A stretch of DNA of 22,933 bases from a virus (IMGVR_UViG_2609459824_000003:1-22933); one strand, 5' to 3'. Numbered from the stretch's first letter, positions 13,730-22,712 are shown. Made by a program: numbers and translations. The notes: generated from the sequence alone by a model not told the origin.

Positions 13730-14473
13730 ATGACACAGACTGAATCAGCGATTCTGGCGCATGCCCGGCGGTGTGCGCCTGCGGAGTCGTGCGGCTTCGT
13801 GATAAGCACGCCGGAGGGGGAGTGGTATATCCCTTGTGTGAATATTTCTGCAGAGCCGGAGGCGTATTTTCGTATCGCACCGGAAGACTGGCTGCGGGCA
13901 GAGATGCAGGGGGAGATTGTGGCACTGGTCCACAGTCATCCCGGTGGGCTGCCCTGGCTGAGCGAGGCTGACCGGCGGCTGCAGATAAAAAGCGCACTGC
14001 CCTGGTGGCTGGTCTGCCGGGGTGACATTCACAAATTCCGCTGTGTGCCACATCTGACAGGACGGCGCTTTGAGCACGGGGTGACGGACTGTTACACGCT
14101 GTTCCGGGATGCTTATCATCTGGCGGGGACTGAAATGCCGGATTTTCATCGCGAGGATGACTGGTGGCGCAACGGTCAGAACCTTTACCTGGACAATATG
14201 GCGGTCACCGGCTTTTACCGGGTGCCCCTGTCCTCTGCACAGGCGGGCGATATTCTGCTGTGCTGCTTTGGTGCTTCGGTACCGAACCATGCCGCCATTT
14301 ACTGCGGCAACGGTGAGCTGCTTCACCATCTGCCTGAACAACTGAGTAAACGGGAGAGGTATTCCGAAAAATGGCAACGACGAACGCATTCTGTCTGGCG
14401 TCACCGCCACTGGCACGCATCTGCCTTCACGGGGATTTACAACGATTTGGCCGCCGCCTCAGCCTGTATGTGA
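13730..14473 (+). CDS. K: Tail tip assembly protein K (JAB/MPN + NlpC/P60 domains)
   Basis: True start is ATG 13730 (MTQTESAILAHARRCAP..., as in lambda gpK), not the ORF-track start at 13469. JAMM motif H-x-H-x7-S-x2-D is present (HSHPGGLPWLSEAD, 13931-13972). NlpC/P60 catalytic Cys context VTDCYTLF at 14090-14092. Confidence 0.9.
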   Translation: MTQTESAILAHARRCAPAESCGFVISTPEGEWYIPCVNISAEPEAYFRIAPEDWLRAEMQGEIVALVHSHPGGLPWLSEADRRLQIKSALPWWLVCRGDIHKFRCVPHLTGRRFEHGVTDCYTLFRDAYHLAGTEMPDFHREDDWWRNGQNLYLDNMAVTGFYRVPLSSAQAGDILLCCFGASVPNHAAIYCGNGELLHHLPEQLSKRERYSEKWQRRTHSVWRHRHWHASAFTGIYNDLAAASACM

Positions 14474-15051
14474 ACACGGCAGCGGAAGCCATCCGGGCGC
14501 TGTCGTTACAGGTGCCGGGCTTTCGCCGTCAGATGAACGAAGGCTGGTACCAGATACGTATTGCCGGTTATGACACGGCACCGGAGGCGGTGTACGCCCG
14601 TCTTCATGAACAGCTGGGTGAGGGAACGGTCATCCATATTGTGCCGCGACTGGCCGGGGCCGGAAAGGGTGGACTGCAGATTGTGCTGGGGGCGGCAGCC
14701 ATCGTGGGCTCTTTCTTCACTGCCGGGGCATCAATGGCGTTATGGGGTTCAGCCCTGGCAGCCGGTGGTTTTTCTGCCACCACGATGCTGTTTTCACTTG
14801 GAGCCAGCATGATTCTGGGCGGTGTGGCCCAGATGCTGGCCCCGAAGGCAAAAACACCGGATTACCGCGCAACGGATAACGGCAGACAGAACACGTACTT
14901 TTCCTCGCTGGATAACATGATTGCCCAGGGGAACCCGATGCCGGTGCCTTACGGGGAAATGCTGGTTGGCTCCCGCCGTATATCCCAGGACATCAGCACC
15001 CGTGATGAAGGCGGGGGCGGAACGGTCGTGGTTATCGGGCGACAGGGATAA
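14371..15051 (+). CDS. I: Tail assembly protein I
   Basis: Translation MATTNAFCLASPPLARICLHGDLQRFGRR...GGLQIVLGAAAIVGSFFTAG...NTYFSSLDNMIAQGN matches lambda gpI. The 5' end overlaps K in another frame, as in lambda. Confidence 0.9.
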   Translation: MATTNAFCLASPPLARICLHGDLQRFGRRLSLYVNTAAEAIRALSLQVPGFRRQMNEGWYQIRIAGYDTAPEAVYARLHEQLGEGTVIHIVPRLAGAGKGGLQIVLGAAAIVGSFFTAGASMALWGSALAAGGFSATTMLFSLGASMILGGVAQMLAPKAKTPDYRATDNGRQNTYFSSLDNMIAQGNPMPVPYGEMLVGSRRISQDISTRDEGGGGTVVVIGRQG

Positions 15052-15056
15052 AACAT

Positions 15057-15089
15057 AAAAAAATCCCGCAGTGATCGCGGAGCTGCGGG
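15057..15089 (-). terminator. Intrinsic terminator oriented for the minus strand, in the I-J spacer
   Basis: On the minus strand: CCCGCAG, loop CUCCGCGAUCA, CUGCGGG, followed by AUUUUUUU (+ coordinates 15089 down to 15057). On the + strand the same hairpin is followed by GACAGACAAAT with no U-tract, so it is unidirectional against the tail operon. Confidence 0.5.
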
Positions 15090-15153
15090 GACAGACAAAT
15101 GAAGATCAATGTTAAGGAGTTGTTTTTGTTACTCGGGCAAAAAAACACTAACG
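15057..15153 (-). ncRNA. Candidate antisense small RNA (~95 nt) encoded in the I-J intergenic insert
   Basis: A predicted minus-strand promoter would start transcription near 15153 and the minus-oriented terminator ends it near 15057. The predicted transcript contains a CA-rich single-stranded stretch (AGUAACAAAAACAACUCC). There is no credible ORF on either strand. Confidence 0.3.
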
Positions 15154-15160
15154 CAGCGAA

Positions 15161-15188
15161 ATTATAAGCGCCACAGTCAGTGTGTGAA
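15161..15188 (-). promoter_or_regulatory. Candidate sigma70 promoter on the minus strand (TTCACA-N16-TATAAT)
   Basis: The reverse complement of + 15161-15166 (ATTATA) is a perfect TATAAT. The reverse complement of + 15183-15188 (TGTGAA) is TTCACA, a 5/6 match to TTGACA, at 16-bp spacing. Confidence 0.3.
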
Positions 15189-15262
15189 AATGTGAAGATA
15201 TTCAGAATTTTTATGCCATTACCGGTTTTAACCAACAGGATTATCGGTGGGCATGAAAGAAA

Positions 15263-15296
15263 ACCCCGGTATCTGCTGATACCGGGGTTTCTCTTT
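15263..15296. terminator. Bidirectional terminator-like hairpin in the I-J spacer
   Basis: Perfect 11-bp stem ACCCCGGTATC / GATACCGGGGT with loop TGCT (15263-15288). Flanked by GAAAGAAAA upstream and TTCTCTTT downstream, so it is U-rich on both strands. Confidence 0.4.
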
Positions 15297-15393
15297 AGCA
15301 TGGCAGAAATGTGTTTCATGCTTTTCGGGCGAAGGATATCCGACTTCTGTACGGAATGGCAAGTGGCGGTTAATTTATTCAGGGGAAGGCTGT

Positions 15394-18300
15394 ATGGGAA
15401 AAGGTGGCGGTAAGGCACACACGCCTCGTGAGGCGAAGGATAATCTCAAATCCACGCAGATGATGAGCGTGATTGATGCGATTGGTGAGGGACCGATAGA
15501 AGGTCCGGTGAAGGGACTGCAGAGTATCCTGGTGAACAAAACCCCGCTGACGGACACGGACGGTAATCCCGTGATACACGGTGTGACGGCGGTCTGGCGC
15601 GCCGGGGAGCAGGAGCAGACACCACCGGAAGGCTTTGAGTCCTCCGGTGCTGAAACCGGACTGGGCGTGGAAGTGACGAAGGCAAAACCGGTGACGCGCA
15701 CCATTACGTCCGCGAACATTGACCGCCTGCGGGTTACCTTCGGGGTGCAGTCACTGGTGCAGACCACGTCAAAGGGCGACCGTAATCCTTCCTCTGTCCG
15801 GATTCTGATTCAGTTACAGCGTAATGGCCGCTGGGTGACGGAAAAGGATGTCACCATTAACGGCAAGACCACCTCGCAGTTCCTGGCCTCGGTGATTCTG
15901 GATAATCTGCCTCCCCGGCCCTTTAACATCCGGATGGTCAGGGAGACGGCGGACAGCACCACGGACCAGCTGCAGAATAAGACGCTGTGGTCGTCATACA
16001 CCGAAATCATCGATGTGAAACAGTGCTACCCGAACACGGCCATTGTGGGGCTGCAGGTGGATGCGGAGCAGTTCGGCGGCCAGCAGATGACGGTGAACTA
16101 CCATATCCGCGGTCGCATCATCCAGGTGCCGTCAAACTATGACCCGGAAAAACGCACGTACAGTGGTATCTGGGACGGCAGCCTGAAACCGGCATACAGC
16201 AACAACCCGGCCTGGTGTCTGTGGGACATGCTGACTCACCCGCGCTACGGCATGGGAAAACGTCTGGGGGCGGCGGATGTGGACAAGTGGGCGCTGTATG
16301 CCATCGGGCAGTACTGCGACCAGACGGTCCCGGATGGTTTCGGGGGGACCGAGCCGCGGATGACCTTTAATGCGTACCTGGCACAACAGCGTAAGGTGTG
16401 GGACGTTCTCAGTGATTTCTGCTCTGCGATGCGCTGTATGCCGGTATGGAACGGCCAGACGCTGACGTTCGTTCAGGACCGTCCGTCGGATGTGGTGTGG
16501 CCGTACACCAACAGCGATGTGGTGGTGGATGATAACGGCGTGGGTTTCCGCTACAGCTTCAGTGCCCTGAAGGACCGGCACACGGCAGTGGAGGTGAATT
16601 ACACCGACCCGCAGAACGGCTGGCAGACCTCCACGGAACTGGTGGAAGACCCGGAAGCCATACTGCGCTACGGACGCAACCTGCTGAAGATGGACGCGTT
16701 CGGCTGTACCAGCCGCGGTCAGGCCCACCGTGCCGGGCTGTGGGTGATAAAGACCGAACTGCTGGAAACGCAGACGGTGGATTTCACGCTTGGGTCACAG
16801 GGGCTGCGTCACACACCCGGTGACATCATTGAAATCTGTGATAACGACTATGCCGGGACCATGACCGGCGGACGTGTCCTGTCCATCGATGCCGCCAGCC
16901 GTACCCTGACGCTGGACCGGGAGGTGACACTGCCGGAGACCGGCACGGCCACTGTTAATCTGATTAACGGCAGCGGTAAGCCGGCGAGCGTGGCCATCAC
17001 CGCACACCCCGCGCCTGACCGGATACAGGTCAGCACCCTGCCGGATGGTGTGGAGACATACGGGGTGTGGGGACTCTCCCTGCCGTCACTGCGTCGTCGC
17101 CTGTTCCGCTGTGTCTCCATCCGGGAAAACACGGACGGCACGTTCGCCATCACGGCGGTGCAGCACGTACCTGAAAAAGAAGCCATCGTGGATAACGGGG
17201 CCCGCTTTGAGCCGCAGTCAGGCACCCTGAACAGCGTTATCCCACCGGCAGTGCAGCACCTGACGGTGGAGGTGAGCGCAGCTGACGGCCAGTATCTGGC
17301 GCAGGCGAAATGGGACACGCCGCGGGTGGTGAAGGGTGTGCGCTTCAGTCTGCGCCTGACCAGTGGTAAGGGAACGGATGCCAGACTGGTGACCACCGCC
17401 ATCACCGCAGACACGGAGCACCGTTTCAGCGGCCTGCCGCTCGGGGAATACACCCTGACGGTGCGGGCGATAAACAGCTATGGCCAGCAGGGTGAACCTG
17501 CCACCACCACCTTCCGGATTACCGCACCGGCAGCACCGTCGCGGATTGAGCTGACGCCGGGCTATTTTCAGATAACCGCAACGCCACATCTTGCCGTTTA
17601 TGACCCGACGGTACAGTTTGAGTTCTGGTTCTCGGAAAAGCGGATTGCGGATATCAGGCAGGTTGAAACCGCAGCCCGCTATCTTGGCTCGGCGCTGTAC
17701 TGGATAGCTGCCAGTATCAATATCAAACCGGGCCATGATTATTATTTTTATATCCGCAGTGTGAATACTGTTGGCAAATCGGCATTCGTGGAGGCTGTCG
17801 GTCGGGCGAGCGATGATGCGGAAGGTTACCTGGATTTTTTCAAAGGAGAAATCGGGAAAACACATCTGGCCCAGGAGCTGTGGACGCAGATTGATAACGG
17901 TCAGCTTGCGCCGGACCTGGCTGAAATCAGGACGTCCATTACGAATGTCAGCAATGAAATCACGCAGACCGTCAATAAAAAACTGGAAAATCAGAGTGCG
18001 GCAATCCAGCAGATACAGAAAGTTCAGGTTGATACAAATAATAACCTGAACAGCATGTGGGCCGTGAAACTGCAGCAGATGCAGGACGGACGCCTTTATA
18101 TTGCGGGTATCGGTGCCGGTATTGAGAATACGCCAGCAGGAATGCAGAGTCAGGTGCTGCTGGCGGCAGACAGGATTGCGATGATTAATCCTGCGAATGG
18201 CAACACAAAGCCGATGTTTGTTGGTCAGGGCGATCAGATATTTATGAATGAAGTGTTCCTGAAATATCTGACGGCTCCCACCATTACCAGCGGCGGTAAT

Positions 18301-18934: not shown

Positions 18935-19534
18935 ATGCGTAAATTATGTGCTGTTATTTTGTCCGCAGTAGTCTGGCAGGTCGCCGCTGCTACGCCAGCG
19001 AGTGCAGCAGAACATCAGTCCACGCTGAGCGCGGGGTATCTCCATGCCTCGACGAACGTTCCCGGTAGTGATGATCTGAACGGGATTAACGTGAAATACC
19101 GTTATGAGTTTACGGACGCGCTGGGGCTGATTACGTCCTTCAGTTATGCCAATGCTGAGGATGAGCAAAAAACGCGCTACAGCGATACCCGCTGGCATGA
19201 AGATTCCGTGCGTAACCGCTGGTTCAGCGTGATGGCGGGGCCGTCTGTACGCGTGAATGAATGGTTCAGCGCGTATGCGATGGCGGGTGTGGCTTACAGC
19301 CGTGTGTCGACTTTCTCCGGGGATTATCTCCGCGTAACTGACAACAAGGGGAAAACGCACGATGTGCTGACCGGAAGTGATGACGGTCGCCACAGCAACA
19401 CGTCTCTGGCGTGGGGGGCTGGCGTGCAGTTTAACCCGACCGAATCCGTGACCATTGACCTTGCTTATGAAGGTTCCGGTAGTGGCGACTGGCGAACGGA
19501 TGCATTTATTGTTGGTATCGGATACCGTTTCTGA
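18935..19534 (+). CDS. lom: Lom outer-membrane beta-barrel protein (Ail/Lom/PagC/OmpX family)
   Basis: Signal peptide MRKLCAVILSAVVWQVAAATPASA. Family motifs GINVKYRYEFTD, YAMAGVAYSR, and the C-terminal LAYEGSGSGDWRTDAFIVGIGYRF ending in Phe. Same position between J and stf as lom in lambda. Confidence 0.9.
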   Translation: MRKLCAVILSAVVWQVAAATPASAAEHQSTLSAGYLHASTNVPGSDDLNGINVKYRYEFTDALGLITSFSYANAEDEQKTRYSDTRWHEDSVRNRWFSVMAGPSVRVNEWFSAYAMAGVAYSRVSTFSGDYLRVTDNKGKTHDVLTGSDDGRHSNTSLAWGAGVQFNPTESVTIDLAYEGSGSGDWRTDAFIVGIGYRF

Positions 19535-19685: not shown

Positions 19686-22600
19686 ATGACAGTAAAAATT
19701 TCTGGCGTGCTTAAAGATGGCACAGGAAAACCAGTACAGAACTGCACCATTGTGCTGAAGGCCAGACGAACCAGCAGCACGGTGGTGGTGAACACGGTGG
19801 CCTCTGAAAATCCGGATGAAGCCGGACGTTACAGCATGGATGTTGAGCATGGTCAGTACAGCGTCACCCTGCTGGTTGAAGGTTTTCCGCCTTCACATGC
19901 CGGGACCATTACCGTCTATGAAGGTTCCAGACCAGGTACGCTGAATGATTTTCTCGGTGCCATGACGGAGGATGATGTCCGACCGGAGGCACTGCGCCGC
20001 TTTGAGCAGATGGTGGAAGAGGTGTCACGTAACGCCTCCGCGGTTGCACAGAATACGGCAGCCGCGAAAAAATCAGCCAGCGATGCCAGTGCATCAGCCA
20101 GCGAGGCGGCAACTCATGCAACCGATGCTGCAGCCTCAGCACGTGCCGCCAGCACGTCAGCCGGACAGGCCGCGTCGTCGGCTCAGTCAGCGTCTTCCAG
20201 CGCAGGAACGGCATCGACAAAGGCCCGTGAAGCAGCAAAAAGTGCTGCTGCTGCAGAGTCATCAAAAAGCGCGGCAGCTACCAGCGCCAGTGCCGCGAAA
20301 ACGTCAGAAACGAATGCCGCAGCATCACAAAAATCGGCAGCCACTTCTGCATCCACAGCGACCACGAAGGCGTCAGAAGCTGCCACCTCGGCACGGGGTG
20401 CGGCGGCCTCAAAAGAGGCAGCGAAATCTTCAGAAACGAATGCATCATCAAGTGCCAGTAGTGCAGCTTCCTCGGCAACGGCGGCAGGAAATTCCGCGAA
20501 GGCGGCAAAAACGTCCGAGACGAACGCTAAGTCTTCTGAAACAGCAGCGGGACAGAGCGCCTCAGCTGCGGCAGGTTCAAAAACAGCGGCTGCATTATCT
20601 GCCAGTGCCGCGTCAACAAGTGCCGGGCAGGCCTCAGCCAGTGCCACCGCCGCCGGAAAATCGGCAGAAAGCGCCGCATCATCCGCTTCAACAGCCACAA
20701 CGAAGGCTGGCAAAGCCACTGAGCAAGCCACTGCAGCAGCGAGGTCTGCTTCTGCAGCAAAAACCTCTGAAACAAATGCAAAGACTTCAGCAGACAATGC
20801 TGCTTCCTCTAAGGCGGCAGCCGCATCGTCAGCCAGTTCAGCGGCGTCATCGGCATCATCTGCGTCTGCTTCAAAAGATGAGGCGACCAGACAAGCGTCA
20901 GCAGCGAAAGGTAGTGCCACGACAGCAACAACGAAAGCATCAGAGGCGGCAGGCAGTGCGACGGCTGCATCTCAGAGCAAAGTTGCTGCTGAATCCGCGG
21001 CAACGCGCGCCGAGACAGCAGCAAAACGGGCAGAGGATATTGCATCCGCCGTGGCGCTGGAGGATGCGAGCACGACGAAAAAGGGGATAGTACAGCTCAG
21101 CAGTGCAACAAACAGCACCAGTGAAAAGCTGGCGGCAACGCCAAAGGCAGTTAAAACTGTTAAAGATAGTTCAGTTCAAAAAACTGGCGACACAATGGGA
21201 GGGCAGTTAAAAATCAGCACGATAAATGCTCTTCGAATATTCAACCAAGCCTTTGGCCTTATTTTTAGGCGTTCCGAAGATCATCTTCATCTTATTCCGA
21301 CTAATGAAGGGGAGGGGGAAAATGGAGACATCGGTTCATTAAGACCATTCTCTATAAACTTAAGATCAGGGTTGGTGTCCATCGGTAATGGACTAAAAGT
21401 TGGTGGTAGTGTTACTGGTAATTTGACCGGAAACGCAGATACTGCGACCAAGATCAAGACAGCACGTAAGATTGGGGGCGTGGCATTTGATGGATCGGCA
21501 GATATCAACTTGCCTGGAGTCAACGCTACCGGTAATCAAAACACTACAGGTAATGCTGCGACCGCCACGAAACTTCAGGCAGCCAGAACGATTAACGGTG
21601 TGTCATTTGATGGTAGTGCAAATATCACATTGACCCCTTCAAATATTGGGGCATTGGCATTAACTGGAGGGACTCTTTCAGGTGGTTTAACTGCTGCTGG
21701 TGAGGTTATTTCAAGGTCAGCAAATGGTCTGCGTATTGCCTATGGCAACTATGGATTCTTTATCCGAAATGATGGATCAAACACATATTTTATGTTGACA
21801 GATTCGGGTAACAGTCTTGGTACGCACAATAGCTTAAGGCCGTTTATAATTAGTAACCATACTGGCAATGTTACAATTGCAACTAAATTAAACGCGAGTG
21901 GTGGTATCACTGGATCTTTATCGGGTAATGCAAGCACAGCAACCAAATTGCAAACTGCAAGGACAATTAACGGCGTAAAATTTGACGGCTCGGCAAATAT
22001 TGAAGCGTTTCCGCCAGGTGTTCCGCTGCCGTGGCCATCAGATACACCACCTGCAGGTTATGCAATCATGCAGGGGCAGACGTTTGATAAGGCAGCATAT
22101 CCGAAACTGGCTATTGCCTATCCTTCAGGTGTTATTCCAGATATGCGCGGCTGGACAATCAAGGGCAACCCCGCCAGTGGCCGGGCCGTATTGTCTCAGG
22201 AACAGGACGGCATTAAATCGCACACCCACAGCGCCAGCGCATCCAGTACGGATTTGGGGACGAAAACCACATCGTCGTTTGATTACGGCACTAAATCCAC
22301 GAATAACACCGGGGCGCATACGCACAGTCTGAGTGGCTCTACGGGGTCTGCCGGTGTTCATACTCATGGTAATGGTATTCGTTGGCCAGGAGGCGGCGGT
22401 TCTGCGTTAGCATTTTATGATGGCGGTGGGTTCACTTATGTCCAGAATTCACAGTATCAAGTAAGCCCGGAGACTTCTTCCTATAGATCGTATTATCAAC
22501 GTATTCAGACACAGTCAGCAGGTGCTCATACCCACTCGCTGTCTGGTACTGCAGCAAGTTCTGGCGCACATGCACATACTGTAGGTATTGGTGCGCATAC

Positions 22601-22712
22601 GCACTCCGTTGCGATTGGTTCACATGGACACACCATCACCGTTAACGCTGCGGGTAACGCGGAAAACACCGTCAAAAACATCGCATTTAACTATATTGTG
22701 AGGCTTGCATAA
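19686..22712 (+). CDS. stf: Side tail fibre protein Stf (mosaic; lambda-like N- and C-termini)
   Basis: The N-terminus [28 protein letters not shown]...[32 protein letters not shown] and the C-terminus ...[32 protein letters not shown]...[25 protein letters not shown] match lambda Stf. The centre holds an Ala/Ser/Thr-rich low-complexity region and three fibre repeats (GNAxTATKLxxARTINGVxFDGSANI). Confidence 0.9.

Follow-up and report, generated by a model that had tools for sequence, protein, structure and literature searches.

A minus-strand gene in the I-J tail-gene spacer of a lambdoid prophage, very probably that of the Hfq-dependent small RNA PasB

Background

PasB was found by RIL-seq in EPEC O127:H6 E2348/69, where it belongs to prophage PP6 (Pearl Mizrahi 2021, PMC8550237). 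It is listed there (Table S6) as an RNA of 83 nt on the minus strand of NC_011601.1 (1466343..1466261), between E2348C_1436 and E2348C_1437, with a 5' end derived from RNA-seq coverage. The E2348/69 RNA has been detected by RNA-seq, by RIL-seq and by Northern blot, the last giving a band of the predicted size (PMC8550237). Its stability is Hfq-dependent: the log2FC in an hfq mutant is -6.8 under activating and -2.4 under non-activating conditions. Expression is higher in the non-activating condition, and the level is higher in LB than in DMEM (PMC8550237). PasB has since been surveyed by Zhu, Shabalina and Storz (2026; bioRxiv 10.64898/2026.05.13.724894), who report that E2348/69 does not carry the commonest variant and that a variant, PasB-2, differs from PasB at position 27. 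The same authors propose that the seed lies just upstream of the terminator, in a conserved single-stranded region.

The partners of PasB are described here from two blocks of the published chimera table (PMC8550237, Table S3), in which PasB is always RNA2. Throughout the PasB block of the non-activating sheet, the partners are nearly all mRNA or intergenic fragments, plus one antisense fragment, ycfH.AS. Those with the highest chimera numbers are E2348C_2648 (71 chimeras), the napF 5'UTR (70), map (67), yhhX (57), the nlpD intergenic region (56), hflX (55) and fabR (50), and others include bfpB, caiF, ygeV, espC, cesD2 and tolC. The activating sheet opens with a block made up largely of sRNA-sRNA pairs, and there PasB occurs only with an intergenic fragment by pasA. 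Neither block contains a known sRNA as a partner of PasB.

A second set of prophage RNAs comes from O157 Sakai. EcOnc22, encoded by prophage Sp15, is about 85 nt by Northern blot and is destabilised in an hfq mutant; EcOnc23 (Sp14) and EcOnc24 (Sp11) are its homologues (Tree 2014, PMC4104026, Table S2). In a 2021 review the targets of EcOnc22 are given as unknown.

The spacer between I and J

The window analysed here is a stretch of viral DNA of 22,933 nucleotides (IMGVR_UViG_2609459824_000003:1-22933) that carries a lambda-like tail module. In phage lambda, the gap between tail genes I and J is just 60 bp, whereas in the window the TAA stop codon of I (15049-15051) and the ATG of J (15394) are separated by 342 bp (15052-15393). 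The GC content is 0.405-0.475 inside this spacer, compared to 0.57-0.62 in its flanks. In a genome with an identical spacer, the PGAP labels on either side are 'tail assembly protein' and 'gpJ', with none between. A preliminary description of the window had reported an AT-rich, non-coding insert of 342 bp at this site, and both its coordinates and the drop in GC agree with the present analysis. Its view that the insert contains no credible ORF also holds, as the mechanical ORFs are not kept in relatives.

The insert had also been treated as a single unit, and this is correct for one part of it only. In 147 phage records, mostly Stx-converting, homology to the spacer always ends at query position 163-166 (about 15217), and the same is seen in E. 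coli genomes; thus, the functional unit is 15052-15217, which is common to relatives, and the other 176 bp are present only in this spacer type. Judged from these alignments, the 342 bp of the spacer combine two parts: an sRNA module of 166 bp that is conserved, and 176 bp particular to one spacer type. The features of both parts are collected in Table 1.

Table 1. Features of the I-J spacer, in window coordinates
Feature	Position	Strand	Remarks
pasB module	15052-15217	-	Terminator, sRNA body, promoter and upstream block; sole part of the spacer common to relatives
PasB sRNA, published boundaries	15139-15057	-	83 nt; NC_011601.1 coordinates mapped via alignment
Rho-independent terminator of pasB	15089-15057	-	Stem CCCGCAG/CUGCGGG, 11-nt loop, A, U7
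Putative seed CUCCUUAACAUUGAUCUUC	15119-15101	-	Peak of duplex scan; 15113 is A here, C in E2348/69
(ARN)5 run	15133-15119	-	AGU-AAC-AAA-AAC-AAC; the 'CA-rich segment' of the preliminary description
Possible 5' extension of primary transcript	15154-15140	-	Suggested by position of -10 hexamer
Sigma-70 promoter	15188-15161	-	TTCACA-N16-TATAAT; consensus scan
Palindrome-like block, CRP-like	15206-15191	-	TCTGA-N6-TCACA; upstream of promoter, conserved
Distal segment of this spacer type	15218-15393		Contains J leader and ribosome-binding site; outside pasB
Strong bidirectional terminator-like hairpin	15263-15296		Extended stem 15250-15303

Identity of the minus-strand unit

The minus-strand unit of the module is, with high confidence, pasB, the gene for a prophage-encoded, Hfq-dependent, trans-acting base-pairing sRNA that lies between I and J of a 'PPompW'-type lambdoid prophage and is oriented against the late operon. 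The Northern probe used for PasB, AATCCCGCAGTGATCGCGGAGCT (PMC8550237, Table S6), matches window positions 15062-15084 (+) exactly, with 0 chance matches expected. As the probe matches the + strand, the PasB RNA is on the minus strand. The E2348/69 locus is flanked by genes labelled 'tail assembly protein' and 'gpJ', as in the window, and from the end of I to about 15215-15217 the two sequences align without gaps and differ only at 15113 and 15208. This gapless alignment places the published RNA at the boundaries given in Table 1. The RNA is identical to that of E2348/69 at 82 of 83 nt, and the promoter is identical. Together, the I/J position, the orientation, the terminator, the promoter and the upstream palindrome are shared by the two loci; beyond the promoter they differ, with 176 bp and a large hairpin in the window and about 75 bp with another hairpin in E2348/69.

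The single difference within the RNA (A at 15113 in the window, C in E2348/69) falls at position 27 of the 83-nt RNA, which is the site given for PasB-2 by Zhu et al. A module at least 99% identical to that of the window is present in 865 E. coli records, a number consistent with the E2348/69 variant not being the commonest. The window carries the commonest pasB allele.

The element is thus not new: pasB has already been published, and it is real and functional. The preliminary description, which had no database searches to draw on, proposed a minus-strand sRNA gene that runs from a promoter at 15188-15161 to a terminator by the I stop codon and is expressed from the prophage, and published experiments on a near-identical sequence bear this out. 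The name, which had been left open, is supplied by the probe and the coordinates. A length of ~95 nt had been predicted; the RNA of the E2348/69 allele is smaller, 83 nt as published, and that of O157 is about 85 nt.

A search of the whole window against Rfam 15 at the gathering threshold gave no match, and a search of 14900-15550 with E up to 10 gave only sub-threshold matches driven by the terminator. The E2348/69 pasB locus likewise gave nothing with Rfam. As no Rfam 15 model matches, there is no independent family-level score for PasB. Other named sRNAs were considered as well. Esr41 and AgvB are ruled out by location, since Esr41 is in SpLE1 and AgvB is at the PR' moron site. PasA, PasC and PasD are encoded outside the tail module, in the neighbourhood of Q and the holin gene.

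Promoter and 5' end

The pasB promoter agrees with the sigma-70 consensus at 11 of 12 positions. It was recovered by the consensus scan exactly where a near-consensus minus-strand promoter had been described; in a 1.5-kb scan, 3 promoter-like sites were found and 0.7 expected. Among 13 aligned alleles, the -10 box reads TATAAT, AATAAT or TATCAT, and the -35 box is not conserved. A GCGTTA sequence by the predicted start site and the U run are invariant or nearly so in the same alleles. In the lysogen, PasB would be transcribed from this sigma-70 promoter of its own, as has been demonstrated for the E2348/69 allele, whose sequence is the same from terminator to palindrome except at 15113.

From the position of the promoter, transcription is predicted to start at about 15154-15152, which would give a transcript of 96-98 nt. 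The published 5' end, corresponding to 15139 in the window, lies 22 nt past the -10 box, a distance at odds with transcription starting about 7 nt after TATAAT. Either the published estimate is short, or PasB is processed within the U run. When the longer form of the RNA is folded, the U run pairs with the ARN segment.

Upstream of the promoter, the TCTGA and TCACA half-sites of the palindrome are invariant in the 13 alleles, and two of the spacer positions vary. The block agrees with the CRP core at 9 of 10 positions, with the mismatch on a contact G, and it is the only match to TGTGA-N6-TCACA with at most 1 mismatch in the 22.9-kb window, in which 0.89 would be expected by chance. Its centre is about -44.5 from the predicted start, compared to the canonical -41.5. 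DMEM contains glucose, and the higher level of PasB in LB than in DMEM would fit control by CRP without demonstrating it. On this evidence, the palindrome is possibly a CRP site, though we consider this doubtful. The conserved palindrome is an addition of the present analysis to the published work, and it hints at how pasB may be regulated.

Terminator and Hfq binding

Folding and the consensus scan place the arms of the terminator stem at 15089-15083 and 15071-15065, followed by an A and by U7 at 15063-15057. The arms and the U tail are invariant among the 13 alleles; the loop varies in both sequence and length. Read on the + strand, the same hairpin has A7 before it and no T run after it, and so is not a + strand terminator. 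These observations agree with the preliminary description, in which a minus-oriented terminator abuts the I stop codon and the + strand has none. Read from the sequence, the PasB transcript would end at the hairpin and U7, 6 nt from the I stop codon.

Just 5' of the putative seed, a run of 3-5 ARN triplets is kept in 13/13 alleles even though its sequence differs among them. An (ARN)n run is the signature of a site for the distal face of Hfq, and the (ARN)5 run of the window probably makes such a contact. In the Class II Hfq sRNAs ChiX and MgrR, an ARN run and a U-rich 3' end contact the distal and proximal faces of Hfq, respectively. PasB likewise combines an (ARN)n run with a U-rich 3' end, a likeness that is to be taken as a resemblance only. 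Hfq would bind PasB, probably via the U tail and the (ARN)n run; the dependence on Hfq is published, and the contact sites are those that the motifs suggest.

Seed and targets

Complementarity between PasB and its partners was analysed by scanning 14-nt windows of PasB for duplex energy against the fragments of eight strong RIL-seq targets, with mononucleotide shuffles as controls. The excess forms a single peak, over CUCCUUCACAUUGAUCUUC, where the energy is -13.7 kcal/mol compared to -9.0 kcal/mol for the shuffled targets. The CA-rich segment, which the preliminary description had favoured for targeting, has no excess complementarity to these eight targets and thus does not appear to serve this function. 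We infer from the scan that the seed is CUCCUU(C/A)ACAUUGAUCUUC, at 15119-15101, which overlaps the conserved single-stranded region proposed by Zhu et al.

Individual duplexes differ in how well they stand out from shuffled controls. With napF, PasB can form 16 contiguous pairs, which take in the start codon and the GGAAGG ribosome-binding site (-25.4 kcal/mol; 0/200 shuffles as good). The caiF duplex covers the start codon (-24.1 kcal/mol, 0/200 shuffles as good), and those with yhhX (-24.7 kcal/mol, 1/200) and map (-21.6 kcal/mol, 0/200) are equally rare among shuffles or nearly so. The duplexes with hflX, fabR, rplX and E2348C_2648 are marginal, with 16-44 of 200 shuffles as good. The chimera site assigned to 'fabR' is just upstream of the yijD start, and that assigned to 'E2348C_2648' spans the start of the next gene.

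In the mechanism proposed here, the single-stranded seed would pair with mRNAs, often over the ribosome-binding site and start, as with napF, caiF, yijD and a prophage PP9 gene. Pairing over the start region would be likely to block translation. The interactions themselves are taken from the published chimeras; our own proposal concerns the seed and the direction in which targets would be regulated. Because the predicted duplexes often lie over ribosome-binding sites, classical occlusion by an Hfq-dependent sRNA is the most likely mode of action. What the present analysis adds to the published work is the proposal of a seed and of target sites, for which the napF and caiF ribosome-binding sites can serve as test cases, and the observation that the commonest pasB allele differs inside the putative seed. 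This difference, A27, weakens all eight of the predicted duplexes with EPEC targets, by 2.2-6.4 kcal/mol, and so the target set of the window allele may differ from that of EPEC PasB.

Relation to EcOnc22-24

The coordinates published for the EcOnc RNAs come from an older version of the genome. The offset was calibrated with AgvB1 and Esr41, two RNAs of the same table that Rfam places in the current version; both are displaced by about +140 bp. The Hfq-CRAC peaks of EcOnc22, EcOnc23 and EcOnc24 are all (3/3) in Sakai I-J spacers, antisense to tail genes, and when shifted by +128 to +140 bp they fall within the Sakai homologues of PasB, whose identity to the window is about 75%. These homologues share with PasB the upstream block, the -10 box, the U run, the ARN run, the AAUCUUCAU motif and the terminator, and they differ from the PasB of the window in the centre of the seed, CUCCAUAACGUUAAUCUUC, and in a weaker -35 box. 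PasB and EcOnc22-24 are probably members of the same family, a conclusion that rests on the coordinate calibration. No statement of a link between PasB and EcOnc22 was found in the publications consulted; tying PasB to the older EcOnc22-24 RNAs joins two literatures.

Distribution and allelic variation

Of 5426 complete E. coli genomes, 1813 carry the pasB module, and a single genome can have up to 11 copies. Among the matches listed in these genomes, none has an annotated feature beneath it. Thus, about a third of complete E. coli genomes carry a module that is unannotated among the matches listed and has no Rfam 15 model. The antisense arrangement between I and J is found in every annotated relative retrieved. 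In Stx2a_WGPS2 a transposase gene stands in place of J, and in the record of Stx2c_JNE072859 the locus is unannotated. A scan of the GTDB representative genomes with the family pattern found E. albertii and two tiny contigs, which are probably contaminants, and thus gave no evidence of the family beyond Escherichia.

The alignment of 13 alleles shows a mosaic. The upstream block, CUCC and AAUCUUC(A/G)U are invariant or nearly so. Variation is found in the -35 box, in the A-rich segment that follows the U run, in the terminator loop and in the 6-8 nt that separate CUCC from AAUCUUC. One reading is that the pasB family is an allelic series, in which the middle of the seed varies on a fixed chassis so that co-resident prophages each retarget host ribosome-binding sites. 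The fixed elements would then be the upstream operator (possibly for CRP), the -10 box, the (ARN)n run, the CUCC and AAUCUUC flanks of the seed, and the terminator. We regard this reading as conceivable and, on balance, unlikely. If it were true, the target set of the A27 allele would be shifted from that of EPEC PasB, the targets could include the anaerobic-metabolism genes napF and caiF, and the RNA might, in addition, have a cis effect at the I-J junction of the late transcript in lytic growth.

Alternative explanations

One alternative is that the main role of pasB is in cis, with the RNA or its transcription acting on the phage's own late transcript at the I-J junction. Such an effect might take the form of a trimming of J expression, of RNase III cleavage between I and J, or of interference with related superinfecting phages. 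In every allele and phage examined, pasB occupies the I-J spacer in antisense orientation. Full complementarity exists by construction, as the late transcript crosses pasB at the I-J junction: it is perfect over about 97 nt, with converging promoters, and no allele is perfectly complementary to a late mRNA other than its own. Within the window, matches to the complement of the seed occur at the locus itself only. In addition, all spacer types have a terminator-like hairpin on the + strand just beyond the promoter, although these hairpins are non-homologous. However, PasB is abundant in the lysogen, in which the late operon is not expressed, and many core-genome partners in trans are recorded in the RIL-seq blocks described above. 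The dependence on Hfq and the conserved ARN run also fit a trans-acting sRNA. A cis role as the main function is thus improbable, with some weight left to it. Since pasB is antisense within the late operon, it may affect the I-J junction in cis during lytic growth, and such a role could be added to the trans role without taking its place.

The preliminary description had placed the locus among candidate prophage anti-sRNAs that act on host sRNAs. In this reading, PasB would be a sponge of the AgvB/AsxR kind, whose CA-rich segment mimics the targets of GcvB and titrates GcvB or another core sRNA. Anti-sRNAs are indeed known from EHEC prophages, and the CA-rich AACAAAAACAAC resembles CACAACA, the consensus of GcvB R1 targets. 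AgvB and AsxR are, like PasB, short Hfq-binding prophage RNAs with ARN motifs and a Rho-independent terminator, and across their alleles the 3' part is conserved and the 5' part variable, as in PasB. Unlike pasB, their genes are at the PR' moron locus, not in the tail module, and there is no match to PasB by sequence or covariance model: the Rfam scan gave no match to AgvB (RF02702) or AsxR (RF02703), whereas the same scan recovered AgvB in a Sakai control locus.

Pairing with GcvB was analysed as windowed duplexes against the R1 region, with 300 shuffles and with AgvB as the positive control. PasB and GcvB R1 can form a duplex of -13.3 kcal/mol; however, this value is equalled by 63 of 300 shuffles, compared to -19.5 kcal/mol and 9 of 300 for the AgvB control. 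As noted, the CA-rich segment lacks excess pairing with targets, and its sequence is not conserved between alleles. Again unlike AgvB and AsxR, PasB has recorded partners that are almost all mRNA or intergenic, and no chimera of PasB with GcvB or another known sRNA occurs in the opening block of the activating sheet or in the whole PasB block of the non-activating sheet. With the partners in these blocks lacking a known sRNA and the pairing to GcvB at chance level, the anti-sRNA proposal does not hold up, and we consider it very improbable.

A small protein would be an explanation of another kind. The candidates are a 22-aa ORF on the + strand, MKINVKELFLLLGQKNTNAAKL (15099-15167), and mechanical ORFs of 77 aa (+) and 128 aa (-). 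The alleles of the window, E2348/69, Sakai and YYZ-2008 all retain the N-terminus MKIN of the 22-aa ORF, and a comparison of the window with Sakai shows two changes that look synonymous, ATC to ATT and AAT to AAC. However, its ATG is lost (ACG) in the PhiR5_1, JLK-2012, Stx2c, KN13-4 and E. albertii alleles, its length is 22, 39 or 31 aa depending on the allele, the alleles diverge after residue 5, and the nucleotides conserved in it are those of the sRNA motif AAUCUUCAU. In relatives, the sequence into which the 77-aa and 128-aa ORFs continue is not homologous. The chance that the spacer encodes a small protein is minimal.

Equally negligible is the reading of a mere intergenic spacer with a terminator and a non-functional, promoter-like match: although consensus matches by themselves are weak evidence and the body of the RNA folds no more stably than shuffles (z about -0.8), the published Northern blot, RNA-seq and RIL-seq data on a near-identical allele (PMC8550237) refute it for practical purposes, the mosaic conservation tracks the promoter, the seed flanks and the terminator, and lambda manages with a 60-bp gap between I and J. 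The identification of the unit as pasB also indicates that a real sRNA gene left out by annotation can be recognised from promoter and terminator signals read without tools.

The distal segment and its hairpin

The distal segment has no homology to the E2348/69 or Sakai spacers. Of 5426 E. coli genomes, 1446 carry it; the identity is nearly always at least 99%, and its matches cover at least 80% of the query in nearly every genome. Among the matches listed there is one exception, a partial match (query 65-176) that lies under a gene annotated as a tail assembly protein.

The hairpin within this segment had been described as bidirectional, which its folding energies and the U-rich tracts that follow it on both strands confirm. 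The energies are -32.2 kcal/mol on the + strand and -28.7 kcal/mol on the - strand (z -5.5 and -5.1), and 0 of 200 shuffles are as stable. The promoter scan found no + strand promoter that would make this hairpin the end of a + strand sRNA. The other spacer types have, at the same relative position, a non-homologous hairpin and a T run on the + strand, and these hairpins show a compensatory C-G to U-A change between alleles. The presence of a different hairpin at the same place in the other spacer types suggests that a terminator-like hairpin just upstream of J is a feature that seems to be maintained.

A terminator-like hairpin upstream of J

All types of I-J spacer contain, immediately 5' of J and past the promoter of pasB (the minus-strand gene for the Hfq-dependent sRNA PasB), a terminator-like hairpin on the + strand that is followed by a run of T. 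An intrinsic terminator within a late operon is unexpected. The EPEC strain E2348/69, the O157:H7 strain Sakai, and the Stx phages share a hairpin, CAGGCACC...GGTGCCTG, to which that of the window is not homologous. Between alleles of this E2348/69, Sakai, and Stx-phage hairpin there is a compensatory change of C-G to U-A.

Read on the minus strand, the distal part of the spacer also contains a weak promoter-like match, TTGCCA-N18-TATCCT (9/12 consensus), that precedes the bidirectional hairpin by about 40 nt. Together, these two elements could delimit another short RNA on the minus strand, about 70 nt in length. Nearly all of the 1446 E. coli genomes that carry the distal segment (15218-15393) have it with an identity of 99% or higher, and thus, its conservation is uninformative either for or against such a transcript.

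Positions of spacer and downstream features
Feature	Locus	Position	Strand	Remarks
Terminator-like hairpin	window	15250-15303	+ (T run)	same relative position in comparison loci L001, L002, L008, L010-L013
Promoter-like match	window	15333-15362	-	
Same hairpin without its extended stem (bidirectional)	window	15296-15263	both	
Mini-ORF, 19-21 aa	L001	1926-1985	+	variants at the equivalent place in L008, L010, L011
22-aa ORF	window	15099-15167	+ (late-operon strand)	directly opposite the proposed PasB seed
Intact 199-aa ORF	window	18935-19534		
1008-aa ORF	window	19686-22712		

Small open reading frames in the spacers

Spacer types other than that of the window contain a mini-ORF (MTQAPGEVPVVFVSEQLSR and variants), which shares sequence with the hairpin and stops about 12 nt short of the J start; no mini-ORF of this type is present in the window. 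Its seeming conservation is probably a side effect of the hairpin. The window has a 22-aa ORF, MKINVKELFLLLGQKNTNAAKL, whose start, ATGAAGAT, is the complement of the conserved sRNA motif AAUCUUCAU. This ORF is not regarded as a gene because its ATG is lost in five alleles.

Prophage context and related records

In the related O145 genome RM9872 (locus L025), the region matching the window (1-22933) is a prophage that adjoins an ompW remnant, and phage records with an identical I-J spacer carry the name 'PPompW'. The RM9872 prophage has a module for terminase, capsid, and portal, after which the lambda-like tail genes (tape measure, M, L, K, I, and J) begin; an IS element truncates lom, and the T3SS effector genes nleG and espM1 come next.

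Two short contigs from assemblies of unrelated bacteria also match the window. One, assigned to 'Streptomyces flavalbus' (NZ_JBHTEB010000006.1, 3408 bp, GC content 0.586), is 96.8% identical to 13923-17336; the other, assigned to 'Parendozoicomonas haliclonae' (NZ_FWPT01000051.1, 460 bp), is 81.9% identical to 14774-15214. Both look like contamination with E. coli prophage DNA.

The EcOnc coordinates listed for Sakai in Table S2 of Tree et al. 2014 differ from the positions in NC_002695.2, the current RefSeq version, by an offset of about +137 to +146 bp at 1.42 and 1.94 Mb of the genome. Used uncorrected on NC_002695.2, they fall on the wrong features.
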